42,768 nucleotides of DNA, taken from the IMG/VR virus record IMGVR_UViG_2531839663_000008, positions 1-42,768 of that record. One strand, written 5' to 3'. Each line of letters begins with the position of its first letter. Positions within the stretch are counted from its first letter, which is position 1. Made by a program: the position numbers and the translations under genes. Positions 11,111-42,768 of this stretch are shown piece after piece. The notes beneath the pieces are model-generated. The model saw only the letters and a list, made by a program, of their open reading frames with translations. It did no database searches and had not been told where the DNA came from. The DNA is from a virus. Its lineage: Duplodnaviria > Heunggongvirae > Uroviricota > Caudoviricetes.

Positions 11111-11796
11111 AATCTCTTGCAGAGCAGATGCGTAACCACGACCGCGAGCAGATGAGCCGCATGGCCCATAACCTGCCAGAGCAGTACCAGGAGTGCGCGC
11201 CGGTCGAGCAGGTGGCGCAGGTATTCAACAAGCTGTTCAACGAGCTGCGCGCCGCGTTCCCGGCCAGCATGGCGAACTTCCGCACCCAGGAAGACCTGAA
11301 CGAATTCCGCCGTCAGTGGCTGCTGGCGTTTCAGGAGAACGGGATCCACACCATGGCTCAGGTCGATGCCGGCATGCGCATTGCCCGCCGCCAGGAGCGC
11401 CCATTCCTGCCGTCGCCGGGCCAGTTCGTCGCCTGGTGCAAGCAGAGCGGCGGCGCGCTGGGCGTCAACGTTGACCAGGTGATCGCCGAATACTGGGACT
11501 GGCGTAACCGCTCGTTCGAATTCATCTCCAGCGAGCAATTTCCATGGTCGCAGCCGGTCATGTACCACATTTGCGTAGAATTGCGCCACCGCAGCACCGA
11601 GCGCCAGTTAACGCATGGTGAACTGGCACGCGAGGCAGGCGATCTGCTGGACATGTGGGAAAGGCGCGTCACCGAGGGTAAGCCAGTGCCGCCGGTACGC
11701 CGGGCTATTGCCGCACCAGCTGCCGAGCAAGGGCCGACGCCGATCCAGCTGCTGCTGGCCAAGTACAACCGCAACAAGTCGAACGGGATGGTGTGA
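11107..11796 (+). CDS. Replication protein P-like (helicase loader)
   Basis: 229 aa; start overlaps O-like stop by 4 nt; lambda-P-like position; family assignment by recollection only. Confidence 0.65.
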   Translation: MKSLAEQMRNHDREQMSRMAHNLPEQYQECAPVEQVAQVFNKLFNELRAAFPASMANFRTQEDLNEFRRQWLLAFQENGIHTMAQVDAGMRIARRQERPFLPSPGQFVAWCKQSGGALGVNVDQVIAEYWDWRNRSFEFISSEQFPWSQPVMYHICVELRHRSTERQLTHGELAREAGDLLDMWERRVTEGKPVPPVRRAIAAPAAEQGPTPIQLLLAKYNRNKSNGMV

Positions 11797-11797
11797 C

Positions 11798-12142
11798 ATG
11801 AACATAACAATCCGTGAGCAGGTGCTGGCAGCCCTGCGCAACAACCCAGGGTTGAACAACGCCAAACTGGCAGGGCTTATCGGCATGGACACCAAAAAGA
11901 TATCCGGAACGGTGAGCACGCTGCTGGCAGACGGCCTGATCCGCTGCGAAGGAAAATACGGCCAGCGCCTTTACAGCCTGACCAGCTACGGAATGCGCTT
12001 CGCCCCTGACACGATACTTGGCATGAAGCAGGGTAAGTCGAAGTTAATTCAGCGGACGGACACAAATGTGATCTGCCAGGAGTGCCGCAACAGCGCGGCG
12101 ATGAGAAGGGTATTGATGGTTTGGGGGAGGGTAGGGGTATGA
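11798..12142 (+). CDS. Hypothetical protein with winged-helix-like N-terminus
   Basis: Start at ATG one nt after P-like stop (MNITIREQVLAALRNNPGL...); ORF-track start 11615 is an over-extension into the P-like gene. Confidence 0.5.
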   Translation: MNITIREQVLAALRNNPGLNNAKLAGLIGMDTKKISGTVSTLLADGLIRCEGKYGQRLYSLTSYGMRFAPDTILGMKQGKSKLIQRTDTNVICQECRNSAAMRRVLMVWGRVGV

Positions 12143-12600
12143 CAAACGTAAGTGCAGTAGAAAAAATGGCTGAATTAATGCAGCAGATGGAAGAGAACTC
12201 GCCCCGAGTTGCTGCTCTCCAGTATTGCCTGACACAGGTTGCGGAAAAAGTCGAAGAAGCAGAAAAGCGCAATGCGGAGCTTGAAGCCAGATGCGCTGCG
12301 CTGAGTGCGGAGAATTCGGGACTGAAGTCAGCGATTGACGCAACTATCGGATGGCAGCAATCAACCGATCCGGAGAATGTCGAAAGCGTTCGAATGCTGG
12401 TCGACGTTAAAACCCCGGTAACCGACGCTTTCCTGGCTGAAGTTCTGGCGCATGGGGTGGAGATGGCGGCTTGCGCTCTTGATGACGTAAACCAGTTTAA
12501 TTACGCAAACATGCTTGACGATTTAGCGCAGAAACTTCGCAAGGACTCCAACACCGCAGACCCGTTAGCCGCTGGCATCATCACTGAGGTGGGGGATTAG
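12139..12600 (+). CDS. Hypothetical coiled-coil protein
   Basis: Start at MTNVSAVEK... overlapping the upstream stop by 4 nt. Confidence 0.45.
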   Translation: MTNVSAVEKMAELMQQMEENSPRVAALQYCLTQVAEKVEEAEKRNAELEARCAALSAENSGLKSAIDATIGWQQSTDPENVESVRMLVDVKTPVTDAFLAEVLAHGVEMAACALDDVNQFNYANMLDDLAQKLRKDSNTADPLAAGIITEVGD

Positions 12601-12603
12601 GGT

Positions 12604-12831
12604 ATGGCTAAGTCACAAATGAAATTGGCTAATCGCGCATGGCGTACAGAAACAAAGGCTTTGGGCTGGCATGAAGGGCGTGGGATGAATCGCAAGCAAT
12701 GGAAAACTTTCTGCCGGGAAAATGCCGCCACAACCGTAGAGTCGCAAAAATACAGCGATTGTCCTGTATTTGGCGATCAGCAAGAAGCCAGAGAAATCGT
12801 TGCCGAAGAACTTACCGAATGGACACTATAG
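12604..12831 (+). CDS. Hypothetical small protein
   Basis: 75-aa ORF, co-directional and tightly packed. Confidence 0.4.
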   Translation: MAKSQMKLANRAWRTETKALGWHEGRGMNRKQWKTFCRENAATTVESQKYSDCPVFGDQQEAREIVAEELTEWTL

Positions 12832-12840
12832 GGCTAACCC

Positions 12841-13512
12841 ATGACCAAACTAACCAAAGAACGCTTGGAAGAAATCGCAGAGCTTGCAAGAAAGGCGACG
12901 TACAAGCCATGTGCAATGCACATGACGAATTTATTGGTAGTATGCGATAGCGAAGTTATCGAGGAAATGGCCCGCCAGTTGCTTGCAAGCATGGAGCAGG
13001 AGCCTGTGTCGTACACCTGTAGTGACGCGTTAGATGATGTTTACTGTGGTAGCGCAGCCATGATGGGGCCCGCTGGCGCTGTGGGAGAAGTACCACTCTA
13101 CGCAGCACCACAGTTACCGCAGCCAGCGGTGTTATCAGTGTCTGAGGGCGTGCTTAAAAGCCTCTTACCCGATGTTGAGAAGTCCGAGTTCTGGTTTGAG
13201 CATAATGGGAAAATCTTTTTTGAAGGTGTGAGGTTTAACAATGCGGTATTTGAAGCCTGCCGCGCCGCCATGCTTCAGGGTGCCGAACTTGTAAGTAATC
13301 GTGATGAGTTGCCGGATGGTTGGGTGGCTTGCAGTGAGCGGATGCCGGAGAAAGCTGATGAAGTTTTGTGTGCCAAAGAATTCGATGGTCCAGGTGATTG
13401 GCGCCAAAAGGTTGGTTATTACTTAGCGGGGAAATGGACGGTGTATAGCGCATCATGGACGCCGACCCACTGGATGCCACTGCCAGCAGCACCGCGGCAG
13501 GAGCTGAAGTGA
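12841..13512 (+). CDS. DUF551-like phage protein
   Basis: C-terminal GWVACSERMPEK ... GKWTVYSASWTPTHWMPLP resembles the DUF551 signature. Confidence 0.55.
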   Translation: MTKLTKERLEEIAELARKATYKPCAMHMTNLLVVCDSEVIEEMARQLLASMEQEPVSYTCSDALDDVYCGSAAMMGPAGAVGEVPLYAAPQLPQPAVLSVSEGVLKSLLPDVEKSEFWFEHNGKIFFEGVRFNNAVFEACRAAMLQGAELVSNRDELPDGWVACSERMPEKADEVLCAKEFDGPGDWRQKVGYYLAGKWTVYSASWTPTHWMPLPAAPRQELK

Positions 13513-34650: not shown

Positions 34651-35594
34651 TGGATACTTTTTACCGTGATTATCGGCTGACGGTGGGGATCGGCAATCAA
34701 GCAGTGATTATCGAGCCACCGATCACCGTGTCATTCAAGGCGCTGGAAACTGTGGACAAGAAGTCACTCGGCAAGCTGAGTGTGTCCATCAACGGGCTAA
34801 AGCCTTCCACGCGTCTGCAATTGCTCAAGTCCGAAGATGAAGAGAAGTATATCCCCGTTCGACTCGAGGTTGGTTACGACGGCAAGCTGCGCCAGGTATT
34901 TCAGGGTTCGGTTAAAAGCGGAGCAGTAAAGCGTGAGGGGGCGATCCACATCGTCAGCCTGGAATGTGAAGACGGTGGCCACGACTATATCAACGCTTTC
35001 ACATCGCGCACGGTACGCGGGAAAGATCAGGTCGTCGATTCTGTCTTGCAGGATATGCCAAACACGAAAAAAGGCTCTGTGACGAAGCAACAAGCACTCA
35101 TCAGGCCGAAGGTTCTGGTAGGTAGCTCCAGTAAAATTCTTACCGATACCCTTGCGTCCGACGAGTCATTTTTCATCAAAGATGAGCGCGTCCACATCCT
35201 CAAGGCTAATGAGGTTACATCGGGTAACATTCCAGTCGTGAATGCGCGTAGCGGTCTGCTAAATACGCCTCAGGCAACGAAGATTAGCGCACAGGATGAC
35301 GGGGGGAAGAAAGCCAAGATGCCAACCAATGAGCCTGATACGGATCCGGCAGGCAAAAAAGATACTGACTCGAGTACCTTAGCCAAATCCTCGAAAGGGC
35401 AGATCGTATTCGATACGAAACTGAATCCTATGCTGGTGATCGGTGGGCTTTGCGCTGTTGAAAGCGTGACGAACCCCGCGTTAAACGGGGTTTATAAGAT
35501 ATACCAGATTGAAACCAGCGGGCAGAACAACGGGGCAGCCTGGTATCAGAAGGTGGTATGCCAGCCTGCCGGAAATTACTCAGTTGTTAACTGA
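34647..35594 (+). CDS. Baseplate hub-like protein (putative)
   Basis: 315 aa, positional. Confidence 0.45.
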   Translation: MMDTFYRDYRLTVGIGNQAVIIEPPITVSFKALETVDKKSLGKLSVSINGLKPSTRLQLLKSEDEEKYIPVRLEVGYDGKLRQVFQGSVKSGAVKREGAIHIVSLECEDGGHDYINAFTSRTVRGKDQVVDSVLQDMPNTKKGSVTKQQALIRPKVLVGSSSKILTDTLASDESFFIKDERVHILKANEVTSGNIPVVNARSGLLNTPQATKISAQDDGGKKAKMPTNEPDTDPAGKKDTDSSTLAKSSKGQIVFDTKLNPMLVIGGLCAVESVTNPALNGVYKIYQIETSGQNNGAAWYQKVVCQPAGNYSVVN

Positions 35595-36113
35595 AGATTT
35601 TACTTCTTGCGTTACGCTGGAATTGGTTTTTTCTGGTGGGTGACGATCTGAAAGCCAGCCAAGAGCAAAAATAATGACTGTGAGAATAAAAATTTTCTCG
35701 CCTATTGAAAACTTCACCTTACCACCTGCATTTTTAAATGCCGTTTTCTCCTCGGTTGATAGTTTTCTAAATTGCTTATGGGTTAATACCATGACCAATG
35801 GGCGAGGTGGTTGAATATCTTCCTGACCATCCTCTAACAACGTTGAGTCCGAAAAGAAACCAAGCCGCTCAGGTGCTTGTTCCTCTACGTTCTCAGCGTG
35901 TTTACCGGTGGAGTTCTTTTGACCCGCGAGCAAGTTTCCACTCGTGTAAGACAAACCGGTACCGGGAATGCCTGCGGTTGCCTTTACCCCTTTTTTACCA
36001 ACGTTCAGGGTAGCACCAGCCTTACCAATTGATGCGCTAGTAATGCCTGTTTTACCTATGTTTATATGAATGCCTGGTGCAATTTTGATGCGCTGTCTGA
36101 ATTTGAATCCCAT
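35580..36113 (-). CDS. DUF4236-like protein with C-terminal TM helix, reverse-oriented moron in the baseplate cluster
   Basis: N-terminus MGFKFRQRIKIAPGIHINIGKTG...GIPGTGLSYTSG matches the DUF4236 signature; C-terminal KIFILTVIIFALGWL; AT-rich; only minus-strand gene in the structural operon. Confidence 0.5.
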   Translation of the reverse strand: MGFKFRQRIKIAPGIHINIGKTGITSASIGKAGATLNVGKKGVKATAGIPGTGLSYTSGNLLAGQKNSTGKHAENVEEQAPERLGFFSDSTLLEDGQEDIQPPRPLVMVLTHKQFRKLSTEEKTAFKNAGGKVKFSIGEKIFILTVIIFALGWLSDRHPPEKTNSSVTQEVKSSVNN

Positions 36114-36846: not shown

Positions 36847-37223
36847 TTGTTTCAGCACTTGATAAAAATGACGACTGGGGATTTGGGCGCGGGAAGGCAA
36901 ACTATATAACTGGCGGTGCTGCTATCGCGCAGAAAGCCAAATGCCGGATCCGCTCGTTCAAAAACGATAATCCCCTCAACATGGATGACAACATCGACTG
37001 GCTTTACCTGTTATCAGAGAAAAACACCGAGCAGGAGATTCTGCGGGAGATAGAGCGCGTGACGCTGGCGACGGATGGGGTTATGCGCATTACCGCTCTG
37101 GCGATGGAGGTCAATAAGGCCACCCGGTCACAAAAAATCGAACTCAGCATTGAGACCGTCTATGACCAGCAGACGATCACCTTCCCGGTCAACGGAGCGT
37201 TGAAGAATGGCACTACAGTTTAG
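36843..37223 (+). CDS. Baseplate wedge protein (gpW/gp25-like)
   Basis: 126 aa, between V-like and J-like genes. Confidence 0.55.
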   Translation: MIVSALDKNDDWGFGRGKANYITGGAAIAQKAKCRIRSFKNDNPLNMDDNIDWLYLLSEKNTEQEILREIERVTLATDGVMRITALAMEVNKATRSQKIELSIETVYDQQTITFPVNGALKNGTTV

Positions 37224-38388
37224 CGACAACGGCCTTGAGACAAGCACTCTCCGGGAGTTATTTCAGGAACTGAGCGACGGATATAAGGGAATTTATGGTC
37301 AGGATATCGATTTAGACCAGGAATCTCCCGACGGTCAACGCGTGGCAATCGAAGCTCAGGCTCGGGCAGATATTGAAGCCGCGCTGCAATGGCTTTATTC
37401 CCAAATGGACCCCGATTTTAATACTGGTGATATGCAGCAGATTATCGCCAAACTTCACGGGCTTTTCCTTCGCCCCGGCTCCCGGTCTCAGCGTGACCTT
37501 AAAGTCACAACAGACAGGCCGGTGCTTCTCTATAGCGGGTACAAGATACGGGACCAGGCAAATCAGGTCTGGGCTATCCGACAGGACGTGACCGTTCCGG
37601 CGGGCGTCACAACAGCCACCTTTTTTGCTCAAAACTTTGGGAAAGTTACTGGGCTTGTGAACGACACCTTCACTCAACTCACACCAGAACCAGGGATTGT
37701 GAGCATTATCTCTGATTCCGCGGTTGTGGTCGGTCGGGATGAGGAAACGCCTGAAGAATTCAGGCAACGCCGGAACCGGTCGCTTGAGAACCCGGCAACA
37801 GGTAGCACTGGGGCGGTTTTCGCTAAAGTTGCTCAACTGACAGGTGTAATTGATCTGAATATCGGAGAGAACGACACAAAAATTGATAATCCGACGACGG
37901 GTATCCCGGCCAATTCAATATGGCTGGTCGTTGAGGGGGGAGCGATTTCAGAAATTGTGGAGGTGATGGTTAAACAGAAAGGCGGTGGAACGGGAACGAA
38001 AGGCAGCATAACCGGACGTTTTACCGAGACCCTGATTCGGCCTGACGGCACTTCATTTCTGATAGCCCATGAACTTCAGTTTGATCGGCCCATCTATAAG
38101 CCGCTTCATATCAGGCTTAATGCCCGCCGGAAGATTCAAAGCGAACCGATAGATATCGATACTCTCAAAAAATCTCTTGCATCACGCACCATGCATATTG
38201 GTGAGTCTGTGGATGCCAATGAATTTTATGAGAATGGGTATGGGGTAGGACGGGTAAATTTTGTGCTGACCAATCTGCAAATTAGCAGTAATGGGGCAGA
38301 TTACACCGATGCTGAGTTATCGCCAGGCTTTCAGGGAAAGTTCACGTTGAGTGTGGAAAATATAGACGTTAACGAGGTGGTCCAGTGA
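37207..38388 (+). CDS. Baseplate protein J-like
   Basis: 393 aa in gpJ position. Confidence 0.6.
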   Translation: MALQFSDNGLETSTLRELFQELSDGYKGIYGQDIDLDQESPDGQRVAIEAQARADIEAALQWLYSQMDPDFNTGDMQQIIAKLHGLFLRPGSRSQRDLKVTTDRPVLLYSGYKIRDQANQVWAIRQDVTVPAGVTTATFFAQNFGKVTGLVNDTFTQLTPEPGIVSIISDSAVVVGRDEETPEEFRQRRNRSLENPATGSTGAVFAKVAQLTGVIDLNIGENDTKIDNPTTGIPANSIWLVVEGGAISEIVEVMVKQKGGGTGTKGSITGRFTETLIRPDGTSFLIAHELQFDRPIYKPLHIRLNARRKIQSEPIDIDTLKKSLASRTMHIGESVDANEFYENGYGVGRVNFVLTNLQISSNGADYTDAELSPGFQGKFTLSVENIDVNEVVQ

Positions 38389-39107
38389 ATGACGACATCA
38401 TTAACCGCTACACGCTAATGCTCATCAAACAATATTGGGAAAAGAAAAAAGCAAGATCAGAGATACAGGCCATGCTCAGGCACTGGCAAATCATCGCCGA
38501 TTTTATTCGTAACCCAGATAACTTTGATCTCGACCGGGTTACCGGATACCGGCTTGATGTCATTGGCCGGATAGTCGGCCTTCACCGTAGTGTGCCTGCT
38601 GTTATTGCCCGTGTATTTTTCGGGTTTGACGGACATCTGAATACCGCAGGCTTCGACAGTAAATCTAATGCGGCGTATGTCGGCGCACCTTTCTACAGCA
38701 AGTTTTCGCCGGCATATGGTGACTATCAACTGGCTGACAATGAGTATCGCAGGTTCCTTCGGGTCAAAATTGCGCGAAACGCCGCAGGTGCAACGATAGC
38801 GTCAGACGATCGGGTCAGCCTGCAGGATGTTATACAGACGGCTTTCAACGGCGAAGCTTACGTGACCGACAGAAAAGACATGACGCTTGCTTTGAACGTT
38901 TCGCCGCGGGTATCAGTTGAAGAGTTACGCCTGATTGTGAAGCTTGGCCTGCTGCCGAAACCTGCGGGCGTTCGATACGATTATTTTTATCAGGTGACTC
39001 CTGGTCTGACATTCGGTTTCTCGCGAAACCCTTCGGCCAGAGGATTCGCCAGCAAGTTTAATACCGCCTACCAGGGCGGTTTTTTTTCGAGGAAAATCCA
39101 TGTCTAA
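38385..39107 (+). CDS. Tail protein (gpI-like baseplate component)
   Basis: 240 aa, positional. Confidence 0.5.
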   Translation: MNDDIINRYTLMLIKQYWEKKKARSEIQAMLRHWQIIADFIRNPDNFDLDRVTGYRLDVIGRIVGLHRSVPAVIARVFFGFDGHLNTAGFDSKSNAAYVGAPFYSKFSPAYGDYQLADNEYRRFLRVKIARNAAGATIASDDRVSLQDVIQTAFNGEAYVTDRKDMTLALNVSPRVSVEELRLIVKLGLLPKPAGVRYDYFYQVTPGLTFGFSRNPSARGFASKFNTAYQGGFFSRKIHV

Positions 39108-39996
39108 GATTGTACGATATCAGGGAGATGTTCGGGCTTTTGCCTCTGATGCACAGGGAATGGAAAGAACCGTGTTTGGTGGAACAAATCAGGCGGATGA
39201 CCTGACCTCGCAAATTACGGCATCTTTCCTTCGCGGATGGGGCATTGTTGGCGCTTCCGAACACCCCTCGCTTGAGGACTTCAATGCGGCAATGTATGCA
39301 ATGAGTCAGTTCATTGCGTATCAGCACCAAATGGGGGTTCCAGAGTGGCATGCAGAACAGGAATATCATATCGGTTCGATCTGCACACATAACGGTGAAT
39401 CTTATCAGTCCTTACAAAATGCAAATATTGGTAGCCAGCCGCCATCAGCAAAATGGACTCCTGTATTAACGTCAAAAAACGGTCTCGCAAACCTTCGTTT
39501 GGGAGCGGGTGCACCTGCCATCGGTATTCCGTTCTTCTGGCCATCCTCGGCGATGCCTAATACTGTTATGACAGAATGGGCCGATATGGTGTTTTTGAAG
39601 TTCAACGGGGCGACATTCTCAGCGGCTACTTACCCGAAACTGGCACTGGTAATCCCCAGCCTGACGCTACCAGATGCTCGCGGTGAGTTTCCGCGCATCT
39701 GGGATGACGGGCGAGGCGTTGATAGTGGGCGGGCGCTTTTATCTACTCAGGGTGATGCAGTGCAACGAATGACGGGTTCATTGTCGCAAATGGTGTATTC
39801 AATTGCTCAACAAGCATCCGATATAAATGGCGTATTTAGTGCGACATCAGGCACACCTAATATTGTGCAGGCGTACTCATCAGCTGGCGCATTACGCTAT
39901 ATGAATGTTAGCTTTGATACACAAAATGTCGTGAGAACATCAACAGAAACTCGCTCCCGCAATATCGCGTTTAACTTCCTCGTAAGGGCGAAATAA
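39100..39996 (+). CDS. Tail fibre protein, current variant (N-terminal constant part outside, C-terminal part inside the invertible segment)
   Basis: 298 aa; contains the left crossover-like site at 39457-39482; followed by tail fibre assembly gene. Confidence 0.6.
   Translation: MSKIVRYQGDVRAFASDAQGMERTVFGGTNQADDLTSQITASFLRGWGIVGASEHPSLEDFNAAMYAMSQFIAYQHQMGVPEWHAEQEYHIGSICTHNGESYQSLQNANIGSQPPSAKWTPVLTSKNGLANLRLGAGAPAIGIPFFWPSSAMPNTVMTEWADMVFLKFNGATFSAATYPKLALVIPSLTLPDARGEFPRIWDDGRGVDSGRALLSTQGDAVQRMTGSLSQMVYSIAQQASDINGVFSATSGTPNIVQAYSSAGALRYMNVSFDTQNVVRTSTETRSRNIAFNFLVRAK
39457..39482. repeat. Left inversion crossover site (candidate)
   Basis: ACTCCTGTATTAACGTCAAAAAACGG; shares the CTCCTGT core and flanking AAACGG with the right site in inverted orientation. 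Confidence 0.45.
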
Positions 39997-40589
39997 TGAA
40001 ACCTGTATTTGATGAAAATGGGCTGGCTAGAGTGCCGGGTGATATGCGTTGTTTTTATTATAATGCAGTAACGTATGAATATACCGGCTGGTCTGATGAA
40101 TATATTAATACTGGCGTAAGTATGCCCGCCTGTTCCACTGGTATTGACCCGGGCGAAAACATTCCGGGAAAAGTGGCAGTATTTACAGGTAAGGGATGGA
40201 GCCATGAAGAGGACCATCGCAATGAGACTGTTTACTCAATCGAAAATGGCGCAGCTGTTACAGTGGATTATATCGGTGACATCAAAAACGGTTATGTCAC
40301 GCTTTCACCGTTAACGCCATATGATAAATGGGATGGTGAGAAATGGGTGACAGATTCTGAGGCACAACACGGTGCCGCAGTAGAAGCAGCAGAAGCACAG
40401 CGCCAGTCGCTGATTGATACTGCAATGGCTTCCATCAGTCTGATTCAACTGAAATTGCAGGCCGGACGTAAACTGACGCAGGCAGAAACCACCCGACTTA
40501 ACGCTGTGCTGGATTACATTGACGCGGTGACGGCAACAGATACCAGCACCGCGCCGGATGTCATCTGGCCTGAACTGCCGGAGGCGTAG
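39996..40589 (+). CDS. Tail fibre assembly protein (variant 1)
   Basis: 197 aa; C-terminal TSTAPDVIWPELP shared with the convergent paralogue. Confidence 0.7.
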   Translation: MKPVFDENGLARVPGDMRCFYYNAVTYEYTGWSDEYINTGVSMPACSTGIDPGENIPGKVAVFTGKGWSHEEDHRNETVYSIENGAAVTVDYIGDIKNGYVTLSPLTPYDKWDGEKWVTDSEAQHGAAVEAAEAQRQSLIDTAMASISLIQLKLQAGRKLTQAETTRLNAVLDYIDAVTATDTSTAPDVIWPELPEA

Positions 40590-41013
40590 GCCATTCAATA
40601 TCTGGCGCACTGGAGGAATCAACCAGTTCCAGTGCGTCCAGATAATCCAGCCACAAATTATATTGCGCCAGTTCATCATCTTTCAGACGACCAATAGCGG
40701 CTTTACCGGGCCATTGCTTACTGTTCATGTATTCGTTGGCCTGGTTAATTAGTAACTGTCTTTCTGATTCAGTAATTTCAATAAGCTCTTCATGCGTGGG
40801 TGGAGGAATATCTGCCCACGCAGGCAGCCCATCATCTCCGGCAATACGGATTTTTCCTTGTGGCGGTTCAGCCATAAACTCACTGATAATATTCTGATTT
40901 ACTTCCTTAGCGTCTGATAAATCCCATCCCTCTGATTTATATTTATCAATCATATCCACAGGAAAAAAAGCATTATACCTTGCGCTATAAACATATTCGT
41001 TCATATAAATCAC
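40561..41013 (-). CDS. Tail fibre assembly protein (variant 2)
   Basis: 150 aa; C-terminal SSSAPDIEWPTPP; 3' ends of the two assembly genes overlap convergently. Confidence 0.7.
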   Translation of the reverse strand: MIYMNEYVYSARYNAFFPVDMIDKYKSEGWDLSDAKEVNQNIISEFMAEPPQGKIRIAGDDGLPAWADIPPPTHEELIEITESERQLLINQANEYMNSKQWPGKAAIGRLKDDELAQYNLWLDYLDALELVDSSSAPDIEWPTPPAVQAR

Positions 41014-41024
41014 CCTGAATAAAA

Positions 41025-41471
41025 TTACTCACCAACAGCCCACCAACTGTAATTCATCGATACCGTGTCGCTGGTTGATGACGTTCTGTAAGCAGAATTA
41101 AAACCGGTTAACGTTGGGCCTTCTGCCGTCATCACGAACCCTCGCCCAGCGCCTAAAGGCGCACCGCCATCACCAGAATGAGTAAGCATGGCGCAGTCCG
41201 CTTTTTTGGGGAAAGGGATGCTGAATGTAATTCTCATTGTTTGCGTCGATAATGTCGGCGTAACCGCACCACGACCATATTGCAGGATTTTCCCGTTGGG
41301 TAATTTCATCCATCCATCACCACTGGCAAAAGAGGCCATGTCCGGTATCTGATTTTCCCCTGTCCCAACATTTCGTTTTGCCGCTTCTCCCAAACCAACC
41401 TTTTTAAAACCCTCAAGTATCTGGCGATCTCTCGCCGTTTCTCCTGTTTTCACAACAGGAGAAATACCCAT
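41025..41471 (-). CDS. Alternative tail-fibre C-terminal segment, expressed only after inversion
   Basis: 148-aa ORF whose 5' end coincides with the right crossover site; the ATG in the ORF track is probably not a real start. Confidence 0.55.
   Translation of the reverse strand: MGISPVVKTGETARDRQILEGFKKVGLGEAAKRNVGTGENQIPDMASFASGDGWMKLPNGKILQYGRGAVTPTLSTQTMRITFSIPFPKKADCAMLTHSGDGGAPLGAGRGFVMTAEGPTLTGFNSAYRTSSTSDTVSMNYSWWAVGE
41435..41467. repeat. Right inversion crossover site (candidate)
   Basis: CCGTTTCTCCTGTTTTCACAACAGGAGAAATAC, internally palindromic (TTCTCCTGT / ACAGGAGAA), immediately upstream of the invertase ATG. Confidence 0.5.
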
Positions 41472-42021
41472 GATTTACGGCTATGCCCGAGTATCAACAA
41501 ACCACCAGGACACCGAACTTCAGCGAATCGCGCTCGAATCAGCAGGGTGCGAACACATAATGGAAGAGCATGCCAGCGGTAGAAAATCAAACCGCCCCGT
41601 ACTGAAGCGCCTAATTACGGCGATGCATACGGGAGATGAGTTGGTGGTCTGGAAGCTGGACAGGATTGGGCGTAACGTTTTACATGCGCTGCTGATGTTT
41701 CAGCAACTACAGGAGAAGGGCATTAACTTCCGAAGTATTACCGATGGTGTTGATCTCAAAACAGCCAGTGGTCGCTATAACTTTCGCAACATCCTCTCTG
41801 CGGCACAATACGAATCCGACCTTAATAGTGAGCGCACTTTGGCGGGTTTAGCTGTTGCCAGGGCAAAAGGTCGTGTTGGTGGCAGAAGACCAAAGTTTAC
41901 TGACGATCAGTGGAAGGAAATTGGTGAACTGATAGCTGCCGGAGAATCCAGACAGATTATTGCCAGCAGGTATAATGTTGGCATGTCCACGCTGTATAAG
42001 AAGTTTCCCGCTGGATGCTAG
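41470..42021 (+). CDS. Serine recombinase, DNA invertase (Hin/Gin/Cin/Pin family)
   Basis: 183 aa; N-terminal IYGYARVSTNHQDTELQ with catalytic Ser, central resolvase domain, C-terminal HTH. Confidence 0.9.
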   Translation: MIYGYARVSTNHQDTELQRIALESAGCEHIMEEHASGRKSNRPVLKRLITAMHTGDELVVWKLDRIGRNVLHALLMFQQLQEKGINFRSITDGVDLKTASGRYNFRNILSAAQYESDLNSERTLAGLAVARAKGRVGGRRPKFTDDQWKEIGELIAAGESRQIIASRYNVGMSTLYKKFPAGC

Positions 42022-42114
42022 ATAGTTGCTGTGGGCCGTGATTTTACGCCACGACCCACAGCTGTAGGCCAGGTGTTCATGCCGTGGCGCTGGCGCAAGT
42101 ATAGGGGGAATCAC

Positions 42115-42357
42115 TCATTCAGCAACAAGCCAGAACTCTGCTTCTTCAAACATTTCCTGAACCACACGGCTAATCTGCTCCTTCTCATGCTTGCTGGCGT
42201 CAGTATTGATCGCCGGCAACGTCATCATAGGTTTCACCCTCACATCAGCATCAGGGAAGATACGGTGAACCCTCCTGGTCAACTCGCCCAGAATGATATC
42301 TTTTGCACCGGGCAGACCATCAAAATTCCTTTTGTCATAAACGAGTTCCACGAACAT
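42115..42357 (-). CDS. dinI: DinI-like DNA-damage-inducible protein
   Basis: 80 aa; ELTRRVHRIFPDADVRV ... ISRVVQEMFEEAEFWLVAE closely parallels E. coli DinI (ELSRRIQYAFPD ... ISEILQETWESADDWFVSE, from memory). Confidence 0.8.
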   Translation of the reverse strand: MFVELVYDKRNFDGLPGAKDIILGELTRRVHRIFPDADVRVKPMMTLPAINTDASKHEKEQISRVVQEMFEEAEFWLVAE

Positions 42358-42372
42358 TGCTCATTGCTCCTT

Positions 42373-42416
42373 TACTGGATGGGTATACAGTATTTATACT
42401 GTGTTTTTATCCAGCA
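42373..42416. promoter_or_regulatory. Two LexA (SOS) boxes in the divergent dinI-like / umuD-like intergenic region
   Basis: TACTGGATGGGTATACAGTA (42373-42392, matches TACTG-N10-CAGTA) and TACTGTGTTTTTATCCAGCA (42397-42416, one half-site degenerate). Confidence 0.7.
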
Positions 42417-42435
42417 TTCAAGAGAGGGCGTAAAC

Positions 42436-42768
42436 ATGGGCTTTCCTTCACCATCTACCGACTATATAGAGCAGCGGGTTACGCCAGCCAGTGTCTGCAT
42501 GACTCCCGACAGTCGCATCCTCGAGACGTCGGCGGGTTATGCGATCATCGTCCCGGTCACGCGCCCACAGCAGGGTGATGCGCTGTTGATTCTGTCCGGA
42601 GGTCGGACGCAGTTTGCGAAGCTTAGGGGGAAAGCGTTAATCACGGATGACGGCGAAGCGATCGAAGGTGATGCAGCTGAAGAGGCTGAGGTTATGAGGC
42701 GGGTGACGCACTTTATCAACAGCACTGATGCTGCGATACCTCTTGAGGCGGCATTGGCGCAGTTTTGA
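42436..42768 (+). CDS. UmuD'-like protein (starts at the position equivalent to the UmuD cleavage product)
   Basis: Start ATG with AGAGAGGG RBS downstream of the LexA boxes; N-terminus MGFPSPSTDYIEQR parallels UmuD' GFPSPAADYVEQR; no SGDSM-type catalytic Ser motif seen by eye. Confidence 0.55.
   Translation: MGFPSPSTDYIEQRVTPASVCMTPDSRILETSAGYAIIVPVTRPQQGDALLILSGGRTQFAKLRGKALITDDGEAIEGDAAEEAEVMRRVTHFINSTDAAIPLEAALAQF

Follow-up and report, generated by a model that had tools for sequence, protein, structure and literature searches.

A probable Pin-type invertible tail-fibre segment in a contractile-tailed lambdoid prophage

Invertible segments that exchange the receptor-binding ends of phage tail fibres have been described in several prophages and phages. 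One of them, the P segment of prophage e14 of Escherichia coli K-12 (stfP/tfaP/tfaE/stfE/pinE), is 1797 bp long (PMC12529663) and presents a fibre gene, a tail-fibre assembly gene (tfa), a second, convergent tfa, a silent fibre C-terminus and an external invertase gene. The same logic is found in the larger G segment of Mu (3.0 kb, with Gin) and C segment of P1 (4.2 kb, with Cin), where the fibre gene S contains the crossover site, between a constant Sc and the alternative Sv and Sv' parts, accompanied by the chaperones U and U', with the invertase encoded outside. In the siphoviruses phi80 (PinL), mEp237 and HK225, the invertase leader consists of a pix-like site (TTCTCCCAAACC AA CCTTT...), a palindrome and the ATG, with a single site and a pseudogene fragment and no invertible segment. 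PinQ (Qin) and PinR (Rac), in turn, are orphan serine invertases that act in trans on another prophage.

Here we describe a locus that belongs, with a probability of about 0.85, to this set, as a Pin-type (Din-family) invertible tail-fibre segment of a lambdoid prophage with a contractile tail. This reading is adopted because domain content, site sequences, inversion in silico and relatives in both orientations point to it. The locus lies in a stretch of 42,768 nucleotides (IMG/VR record IMGVR_UViG_2531839663_000008), hereafter the window, and its features are the following:

39100-39996, plus strand: the whole tail-fibre gene, with a weak match to the phage tail Collar domain
39100-39495, plus strand: constant 5' part of the fibre gene (aa 1-132, ending in ...NGLANL); identity to relatives stops at 39495-39505
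39482-39507, no strand assigned: left crossover site, pixL-like, 12+2+12 (GTCTCGCAAACC TT CGTTTGGGAGCG), from the Din consensus and comparison with pixL
39496-39996, plus strand: expressed variable fibre C-terminus of collar-domain type (aa 133-298; Pfam Collar)
39996-40589, plus strand: expressed-side tail-fibre assembly protein, 197 aa, TfaE-like (Caudo_TAP, 6.6e-28)
40561-41004, minus strand: silent tail-fibre assembly protein, 147 aa, TfaP/YfdK-like (Caudo_TAP, 1.2e-30)
41025-41398, minus strand: silent alternative fibre C-terminus with a gp53-like C-terminal domain (Gp53-like_C, 1.3e-12)
41385-41410, no strand assigned: right crossover site, pixR-like (TTCTCCCAAACC AA CCTTTTTAAAAC), from the Din consensus and comparison with pixR
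41439-41463, plus strand: leader palindrome TTCTCCTGTT-TTCAC-AACAGGAGAA (10+5+10), spanning the invertase Shine-Dalgarno sequence AGGAGA (41457-41462)
41470-42021, plus strand: phi80 PinL-type serine DNA invertase (183 aa), encoded outside the segment (Pfam Resolvase, 1.4e-37; HTH_7, 2e-11)

The gene order is that of e14. An earlier sequence-only reading had seen the invertase gene beside a segment of roughly 2 kb holding two convergent gene pairs, and the Pfam domains on both strands agree with it: the segment measures 1.9 kb and each pair consists of a fibre C-terminus and a tail-fibre assembly protein. The pix sites of e14 are almost the same as those of the window, with the inner half TTCTCCCAAACC, the AA core and a left-site codon phase in common (N-L-G/R-L-G), and the invertase ATG lies just outside the segment in both, 59 nt beyond the right site in the window and 54 nt in e14. 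Nevertheless, the right-site outer half CCTTTTTAAAAC and the leader palindrome are specific to the PinL type, and the constant fibre part and baseplate genes, of DUF2612 type in the window, are unrelated to those of e14 (YmfQ type). Furthermore, e14 is defective, whereas the prophage of the window appears complete, from integrase to tail genes. Its integrase shares 99% identity with the one encoded by the TUM9803 prophage, an occupant of the phi80-type kch-yciI integration site, and a DUF2612 baseplate-wedge gene (38385-39107) precedes the fibre gene. Mu and P1 differ from the window in their gix and cix half-sites (TTCCTGTAAACC and TTCTCTTAAACC), in the GA core of Mu, and in their fibre and chaperone families. 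With phi80, mEp237 and HK225 the window shares the arrangement of the leader but, unlike them, it possesses the two sites together with two full pairs of modules.

The two alternative C-termini belong to different Pfam domain families, which is consistent with different receptors. The Collar match of the expressed one (aa 157-198) scores 23.1 bits, below the cut-off of 24; the same collar-type module is expressed behind the same constant part in the IMG/VR contig L028, and a 64%-identical one occupies the silent position, adjoining a PinL-type invertase, in contig L030. The expressed-side assembly protein is 61% identical to e14 TfaE and the silent one 54% identical to TfaP, and both end in the (S/T)APD(V/I)(I/E)WP motif that had been noticed earlier, found here as TAPDVIWP and SAPDIEWP. 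Their genes overlap convergently by 29 bp at the 3' ends. For the silent tfa, the ATG at 41004 is the likely start, although the listed ORF begins at a GTG at 41013. Likewise, the silent C-terminus is listed as an ORF spanning 41025-41471 on the minus strand, whose frame upstream of the right site falls in the invertase leader; both silent ORFs are intact and full length. Independent expression of this C-terminus from an ATG at 41471 was considered and rejected: that stretch is the invertase leader, and the frame is broken in leaders of the NADC1036 and TUM9803 types. In NCBIfam, no family was found for the fibre or chaperone proteins, and all matches of the invertase were below threshold.

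The limits of the segment are defined by two 26-bp sites. When the Din consensus TTCNNNNAAACNNANGTTTNNNNGAA was run over the whole window with up to three mismatches, just two fits were obtained, 39482-39507 on the minus strand and 41385-41410 on the plus strand. As for the strict half-site CTCNCAAACSWW, its three occurrences all fall within these two sites, against 0.18 expected, and none of 100 shuffles reached three. Read from the inner half outwards, both sites have AA as their core, and they stand in inverted orientation; the left core (TT, 39494-39495) forms bases 2-3 of the Leu132 codon and the right one is AA at 41397-41398. Compared with the published table of hix, gix, cix and pix sites, the 26-bp sites match pixL and pixR (PMC3241671). 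In that work, pixL reads TTCTCCCAAACC AA GGTTTTCGAGAG (table 3) and pixR TTCTCCCAAACC AA CGTTTATGAAAA (PMC3241671), and the reverse complement of the left site, CGCTCCCAAACG AA GGTTTGCGAGAC, is closely like pixL. Moreover, its reading frame is that of pixL in e14 stfP (E-N-L-G-L-G-E). Extra crossover sites, of the sort that a multi-inversion system like Min of p15B has, were absent from the window in both half-site and consensus scans.

These positions differ from those proposed at first sight, i.e., 39457-39482 and 41435-41467, with crossover at a CTCCTGT core and a ...T-P-V|V-K-T... fusion. The 7-mer is indeed there, at 39458-39464 and 41441-41447 on the plus strand and 41455-41461 on the minus strand, and its reported phase in both fibre frames (T-P-V and S-P-V) stands, as does an alternative ORF that is open up to 41471 in the window; its role as crossover site does not. 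The window contains eight copies of the 7-mer where 3.8 would be expected, and neither interval fits the Din consensus within three mismatches. Identity in the constant region runs 30-40 nt beyond the left candidate, to 39495-39505, and the right-hand homology breaks all fall at 41385-41409, to the left of the right candidate. Furthermore, the leaders of NADC1036 and TUM9803 do not preserve the upstream extension of the ORF, and the right candidate is in fact a palindrome, conserved and spanning the ribosome-binding site of the invertase, that is present as well in phi80 (as IR3), mEp237 and HK225, where there is no invertible segment. We give next to no credence to crossover at these cores: the sites lie some 25-50 bases away and the fusion junction is ...N-L|G-L-G-E....

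Following what is established for Hin, Gin, Cin and Pin, the 183-aa invertase would bind as dimers to both 26-bp sites in their inverted orientation, the bound sites would synapse and both be cut at the central AA/TT dinucleotide through Ser9, and one pair of subunits would rotate by 180 degrees before religation of the ends, so that the 1903 bp between the cores would be flipped. In the present orientation, the constant 132 aa are followed by the collar-type C-terminus and then by its chaperone, on the plus strand, reading on from the upstream tail and baseplate genes. In the inverted one, the same N-terminus would continue in frame into the gp53-like C-terminus (junction ...NGLANL|GLGEAAKRNVGTGENQ...) and the other chaperone would follow. 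At the DNA level, the predicted inverted junctions are ...GCAAACCTT|GGTTTGGGAGAAGC... and ...GCTCCCAAACGAA|CCTTTTTAAAAC.... The predicted right junction, CGCTCCCAAACGAACCTTT, has no match in IMG/VR, and its three matches in metagenomes, devoid of other similarity to the window, are due to chance. Inversion in silico does produce an in-frame fibre ORF of 255 aa, whose residues 1-148 are identical to those of the fibre of E. coli NADC1036, with a single I/V difference at 149, and the silent tfa then follows the fibre gene by 20 nt. Altogether, domains, sites, inversion in silico and relatives support the architecture of the Mu G, P1 C and e14 P segments that had been recognized in the locus, with an in-frame alternative fusion and a co-switching chaperone.

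Comparison with relatives places the breaks of homology at the sites. On the left, the constant fibre part is 99.7-99.9% identical in six E. coli genomes and 96.4-96.5% in three more; in all nine the match ends at 39495-39505, and the modules downstream differ among the genomes. The scan of contigs added a single locus, in Citrobacter murliniae, where the constant part is 93% identical up to 39500 and no invertase is present. On the right, homology within the segment ends at 41398 in phage pro483, a P2-related phage and Citrobacter phage Omnitron, and at 41409 in Sp1 of O157. Conversely, in the IMG/VR contig L060 homology starts at 41385, the right flank (41385-42768) being 99.86% identical and the DNA to the left of the site belonging to an unrelated phage.

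Moreover, the modules occur in both polarities. Positions 41337-41398 of the window align in inverted orientation, at 92% identity, with the fibre that NADC1036 expresses, and the match stops exactly at 41398; the silent module type of the window is the expressed one in NADC1036, and its expressed type is silent in L030. Between TUM9803 and NADC1036 the flanks are 98-99.9% identical, and the interior, which aligns in the reverse sense, has its breakpoints at the sites; since the interiors are only 82-87% identical, this pair does not represent a simple recent flip. Furthermore, the NADC1036 segment recurs in KS-NP019 with its polarity reversed, at 99.2% identity, the match extending from one site to the other. 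Roughly one in two complete E. coli genomes of the collection contains matching cassette DNA.

Such boundaries could also be read in another way, namely that the 26-bp sites serve as joints for the exchange of receptor-binding modules between phages, inversion being secondary or absent. In this sense speak the homologies with many unrelated phages that start or stop exactly in the sites, the recurrence of the same segment, 99.2% identical, where both the preceding constant part and the type of the neighbouring invertase are different, and the cases of C. murliniae and E. coli 23AR0998, where the left site leads into other modules and an intact invertase is lacking. Nevertheless, exchange and inversion are compatible: the swapping of cassettes at crossover sites is the trace expected of an active invertase family, and the same modules are found in both polarities; as a substitute for the invertible switch, we hold it to be quite improbable.

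A different question is whether the present copy still inverts. Three of the 12 bases of the left inner half-site, CGCTCCCAAACG, differ from the TTCTCCCAAACC of most relatives' inner half-sites, and the canonical GGTTTGGGAGAA is present in L028, the nearest relative that shares the module, so that the left half-site could be decaying. Moreover, many PinL-type invertases are single-site orphans (21 IMG/VR loci and phi80), and fossil segments are common in E. coli, with Sp1 of Sakai and truncated silent modules as examples. The locus might then be a frozen switch, with genes and sites inherited from an active ancestor and a fibre fixed in its collar-type form. However, both silent genes are complete, the invertase has an undamaged ORF that is identical to one in L060, and neither site has lost the AAAC(C/G) element or its matching AA core. 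All three substitutions are known from sites accepted as functional: the outer end of cixL is CA, and a C adjoins the core in pixR and in the mix sites (PMC3241671). A near-identical variant of the half-site, TGCTCCCAAACG, adjoins the invertase in L030. A frozen switch is unlikely in our opinion, if well worth bearing in mind; more probably, the invertase of this prophage is active and the segment inverts.

The gene of this enzyme is full length and its product aligns, over residues 1-181, with the Gin structures 3uj3 and 4m6f (E 7e-56, the best among solved structures), with Ser9 present. R7, S9, D64, R65, R68, E121, R122 and G138-R139 are invariant in the alignment of invertases. Identity amounts to 56% with PinE and 87% with phi80 PinL and E. 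coli relatives, in contrast to only 38% with PinQ and PinR.

Where the enzyme departs from its better known relatives is in the residues related to regulation. In Hin, Q151, R154, L155 and the basic residues 47, 48 and 51 make contacts with Fis or the enhancer and are conserved in enhancer-dependent invertases; Q151, R154 and K51 are among those that activation by Fis and the enhancer requires, or with which it is conserved (PMC3798978). At these positions the invertase of the window has E150, E153, L154, K46, R47 and T50, so that three of the six are kept and Q151, R154 and K51 are replaced by E, E and T. Gin and Cin keep the residues that are absent here, and PinQ and PinR also have E-R instead of the R154-L155 pair of Hin. 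Among 14 distinct PinL-type proteins of 182 or 183 aa from IMG/VR, E occupies position 150 in 13 and position 153 in 10, R position 154 in 9, A or T position 50 in 13, and R replaces Hin H107 in all 14. The PinL type has lost Hin Q151, R154 (often L155 too) and basic residue 51, and has R at the position of H107. The H107Y change makes Hin independent of Fis.

In Gin, Cin and Pin, the enhancer is a cis-acting element with two Fis sites at the 5' end of the invertase gene. The P1 record locates it at nt 19-90 of cin. In the window, the proximal Fis-like 15-mer GTATCAACAAACCAC is kept at nt 22-36 of the invertase gene, overlapping the catalytic RVSTN codons, and the position of the distal site reads CAGCAGGGTGCGAAC, without the 5' G. 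Diversity at third codon positions (synonymous) in 40 PinL-type genes presents no dip at codons 11-30, a test rendered powerless by the equal lack of a clear signal in the gin/cin/pin control with known enhancers. With the Fis-contact residues mostly absent, canonical Fis-dependent regulation would be less likely; this does not affect the assignment as a serine invertase acting on pix-like sites.

The leader palindrome adds a further element. In PinL-type invertases it is always found, 25 bp long and centred about 53 bp outside the crossover site, with arms that are invariant in eight leaders of this type; the exact pattern occurs in 89 IMG/VR stretches, and it is the annotated IR3 in phi80. 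A composite pattern of crossover site plus PinL start, which was too strict, had no match in IMG/VR. The outer hexamers of the palindrome, TTCTCC...GGAGAA, are those of the crossover site, placed 1 bp closer together. Seen as an accessory site lying over the ribosome-binding site of the invertase's own gene, it could loosely resemble the accessory sites of resolvase res. As RNA it folds with -12.4 kcal/mol, or -15.4 kcal/mol with flanks, and an mRNA hairpin that holds translation low would be the simpler alternative. Tentatively, and as a rather improbable proposition, the PinL-type invertases of the window, phi80 and dozens of IMG/VR loci may constitute a regulatory variant of the Din family that dispenses with canonical Fis contact, and in which the palindrome would possibly be an uncleaved accessory or autoregulatory invertase-binding site.

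As regards the role of the switch, PinQ has been reported to invert the e14 P segment, whose inverted form yields a chimeric Stf protein that blocks T2 adsorption (PMC12529663). Inversion in the lysogen could likewise serve the host against other phages, as that report concerns a closely related segment type (PMC12529663) and the pix-like sites could be acted upon by other resident Pin-family invertases. Nonetheless, for a prophage that appears complete, a role in virion host range is the simpler reading, and we consider an anti-phage device very improbable here. As an invertible host-range switch, the segment would allow a population of lysogens to release phages with two receptor specificities.

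The switch is of the e14, Mu and P1 kind, which is already well known, and the accepted picture of Din-family switches is unchanged by it. At the level of the family, the 26-bp sites act as sharp joints for the exchange of receptor-binding cassettes. For this prophage, the sites at 39482-39507 and 41385-41410 constitute precise targets for orientation assays and for mutations that lock the orientation, and the fibre is best annotated as two alternative proteins, of 298 aa and 255 aa, with residues 1-132 in common. Any prediction of its host range should therefore weigh both receptor-binding tips.

The window is essentially a single prophage, in which the integrase is followed by early, lysis, head and contractile-tail genes, baseplate J, a DUF2612 wedge gene and the switch region; in E. 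coli TUM9803, the kch-yciI interval is occupied by a syntenic prophage. The first base is that of the integrase ATG and the last (42768) ends a stop codon, so that the limits look gene-defined, not attachment-site-defined. All the gene calls made in the switch region by the sequence-only reading (fibre, two tfa chaperone genes, alternative fibre C-terminus, serine invertase) are supported by Pfam.

Features of the window discussed here
1-1194: integrase
37207-38388: baseplate J gene
38385-39107: DUF2612 wedge gene
39100-39996, plus: fibre gene (weak Pfam Collar match)
39482-39507: left site, read as 12+2+12, GTCTCGCAAACC TT CGTTTGGGAGCG
39996-40589, plus: tfa (Caudo_TAP, 6.6e-28)
40561-41013, minus: second tfa, convergent (tfa'), likely ATG at 41004 (Caudo_TAP, 1.2e-30)
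41025-41471, minus: fibre C-terminus ORF (Gp53-like_C, 1.3e-12)
41385-41410: right site, read as 12+2+12, TTCTCCCAAACC AA CCTTTTTAAAAC; start of the right flank
41470-42021, plus: invertase, 183 aa (Resolvase and HTH_7); right flank
42115-42357, minus: DinI-like gene; right flank
42436-42768: 110-aa ORF; right flank

Upstream of the switch, a DUF4236 gene (35580-36113, minus) runs counter to the tail/baseplate operon that surrounds it and is kept in E. coli relatives. Inside the DUF2612 gene, at its 3′ end and 20 nt ahead of the fibre ATG, is a terminator-like hairpin with 8 consecutive T (39063-39080), though it may mean nothing, such matches numbering 4 in the region vs 3.8 by chance.

That an inverted pair of crossover sites flanks the segment was confirmed, but not at the positions first proposed. 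An inverted-repeat search returned a 17-nt pair at 39489-39505 and 41387-41403 instead of the CTCCTGT-bearing candidates. Aligned with the published Din-family table, the sites at 39482-39507 and 41385-41410 are pix-like, pixL being TTCTCCCAAACC AA GGTTTTCGAGAG and pixR TTCTCCCAAACC AA CGTTTATGAAAA; the right site's unusual outer half is comparable to the ‘TTTTGG’ half of hixR (PMC3241671). The strict half-site CTCNCAAACSWW occurs 3 times in the 42.8-kb window, always inside these two sites, against 0.18 expected by chance (0/100 shuffles reached 3), and a window scan with the 26-bp consensus TTCNNNNAAACNNANGTTTNNNNGAA, allowing up to 3 mismatches, matched the left and right sites only, on opposite strands. 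Inversion requires identical cores in the two sites, and both read AA from inner to outer half. The left inner half-site differs at 3 positions from TTCTCCCAAACC, the form in most relatives; each of these changes is also found in sites accepted as functional (PMC3241671), and a near-identical variant adjoins the invertase in the IMG/VR locus L030 (TGCTCCCAAACG, 1 base different from CGCTCCCAAACG in the window).

Crossover at the CTCCTGT cores of 39457-39482 and 41435-41467 is contradicted on both sides, by homology that breaks past the left candidate and by the nature of the right one. The core itself has 8 copies in the window vs 3.8 expected. The left candidate lies wholly within DNA common to the window and nine E. 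coli genomes, whose identity over the constant region is 99.7-99.9% in six and ~96% in the other three; all nine matches over the constant part of the fibre gene (39100-39495) extend to 39495-39505, the modules downstream being different, and in Citrobacter murliniae homology breaks at 39500. The right candidate corresponds to a perfect 10+5+10 palindrome (41439-41463, TTCTCCTGTT-TTCAC-AACAGGAGAA) that covers the invertase Shine-Dalgarno and is kept before the PinL-type invertase genes of phi80, mEp237 and HK225, each of which has a single pix-like site and lacks an invertible segment. The matching phase in which both cores encode T/S-P-V is real but incidental; the open frame past the right site is the invertase leader, interrupted in other leader types.

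Between TUM9803 and NADC1036 the flanks are 98-99.9% identical and the interior aligns inverted, the alignments overlapping by 15 bp at each site. With the NADC1036 segment as query, the best foreign match was KS-NP019 (99.2% over query 8-1845, i.e., site to site), where the segment, in opposite polarity to NADC1036, belongs to an e14-like prophage whose invertase is of the PinE type, the collar-type module being expressed and the gp53-type module silent. In NADC1036, the expressed variable part of the fibre begins with a stretch that matches window 41337-41398 in inverted orientation (92%), and the match stops exactly at the core. Furthermore, L030 carries the window's expressed module type and chaperone in the silent position, beside a PinL-type invertase, and another IMG/VR locus (L028) has the window's constant part with the same module expressed and a canonical left site. 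Window 41385-42768 is 99.86% identical to positions 11489-12872 of a third (L060), the identity beginning at the right site's first base, to the left of which L060 is an unrelated phage that has an invertible segment of its own. The invertase apparently moves together with the right-flank cargo genes, among them the 110-aa ORF, which matches HumD/UmuD-like proteins over its first 29 aa. Phage pro483, a P2-related phage and Citrobacter phage Omnitron are homologous to the window up to 41398, and O157 Sp1 up to 41409. For the IMG/VR loci that have the PinL leader, 34 candidate partner sites were located at 1.46-3.2 kb from the invertase-proximal site, mostly at 1.8-1.9 kb as in the window; another 21 such loci have no candidate partner site. 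In C. murliniae (L003, 6383-6408) and E. coli 23AR0998 (L008, 5283-5308), the constant part and left outer half-site continue into different C-terminal modules, through GGTTTAAAAGAA and GGTATTAAAGAC, respectively. The former has no invertase and the latter only a truncated one; both are fixed fibre versions with a site relic.

Within the segment, a sharp mosaic joint at 40308 falls inside tfa. The stretch between this joint and 41398 has 92-96% identity to pro483, the P2-related phage, Omnitron and numerous E. coli prophages, and several Klebsiella phages have 40308-40749 in common (94%). The C-terminal half of tfa thus circulates in company with tfa' and the silent fibre tip. The 3′ ends of the two tfa genes overlap by 29 bp (40561-40589), and an 18-nt inverted repeat within both (40508-40525 / 40634-40651, 83% complementary) stems from a common LDYIDA / LDYLDA protein motif on opposite strands.

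In-silico inversion of 39496-41396 (1903 bp from core centre to core centre) leaves the fibre ORF open, at 255 aa, with the junction ...TSKNGLANL|GLGEAAKRNVGTGENQIPDM... and a 147-aa chaperone gene 20 nt past the fibre stop. The predicted fibre equals the annotated NADC1036 fibre through residue 148 and diverges within the gp53-like domain (71% overall); the anticipated in-frame fusion of the constant N-terminus to the alternative C-terminus is thus borne out in silico. The mechanism of Hin, Gin, Cin and Pin is established and, by analogy, most likely applies to the switch: invertase dimers would occupy the left and right sites, cut both strands at the core of each with Ser9 joined to DNA, and religate after a 180-degree rotation of one subunit pair. 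Only the plus-strand pair, read on from the upstream tail/baseplate genes, would be coexpressed with the other tail genes, so that each flip would exchange the receptor-binding tip together with its chaperone.

Over its whole length the invertase can be aligned with the structures 3uj3 and 4m6f of Gin (E 7e-56), with Ser9 present, and is 56% identical to e14 PinE and 87% to phi80 PinL. In the PinL type, position 51 is not basic and R stands at the H107 position (window residues 46-50, 104-109 and 150-154 compared), to which the Fis-independent Hin mutation H107Y maps. Q151, R154 and L155 are Fis-contact residues in Hin, where R154D and substitutions of L155 leave almost no Fis-activated inversion (PMC3798978); the window invertase has E, E, L there, and most PinL-type proteins E, E, R. 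Judging from these residues, regulation may differ from the textbook Fis-dependent case. They are not evidence of inactivity, since PinQ, which like PinR has E-R at the R154-L155 positions, inverts the e14 P segment (PMC12529663). Of the two Fis-like motifs at the 5′ end of the invertase gene, the proximal is conserved and the distal imperfect. Synonymous-site diversity across 40 PinL-type genes is not reduced over codons 11-30, but gin, cin and pin, which have known enhancers, give no clear signal either, so that this measure lacks the power to reveal an embedded enhancer.

The leader palindrome, annotated as IR3 in phi80, folds as RNA at -12 to -15 kcal/mol. Its exact pattern occurs in 89 IMG/VR stretches, and the palindrome is also present at L001 5484-5508, L005 7163-7187 and L002 4183-4209; across 80 IMG/VR loci the arms show no variation and the loop reads TTCAT, TTTAC or TTCAC. 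Its outer hexamers, TTCTCC/GGAGAA, are those of canonical inner half-sites, TTCTCCCAAACC, but 13 bp apart vs 14 bp in a fully symmetric 26-bp site, and its centre lies ~53 bp from that of the right site. It could be an mRNA hairpin limiting translation, or an invertase operator. Between the right site and the palindrome, a small G+C-rich hairpin (41422-41437, TGGCGATCTCTCGCCG, followed by TTTCTCCTGT) is terminator-like by consensus scan, and its stem persists, with G-U pairs, in the leaders of relatives; it could shield the invertase gene from transcription exiting the segment.

The proposed likeness to the e14 P segment holds in segment design and pix-like sites, with TfaE/TfaP-like chaperones 61% and 54% identical. 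Moreover, e14 pixL lies inside stfP in the same codon phase as the left site (E-N-L-G-L-G-E in e14, A-N-L-R-L-G-A in the window), and the right site is 59 nt from the invertase ATG, against 54 nt from pixR to pinE. The window departs from e14 in its baseplate and fibre stem and in its invertase, which is of the phi80 PinL type and has the leader typical of that type. Of the 5,426 complete E. coli genomes in the collection, about half contain matches to such cassette DNA, and DUF2612, tail-fibre and tail-fibre-assembly genes are among the enriched targets or neighbours in a survey of programmed inversions (PMC9881135). The only mildly novel thread is the PinL subfamily's non-canonical Fis-contact surface together with the leader palindrome; the switch itself is an already known design, of the e14 P-segment kind.
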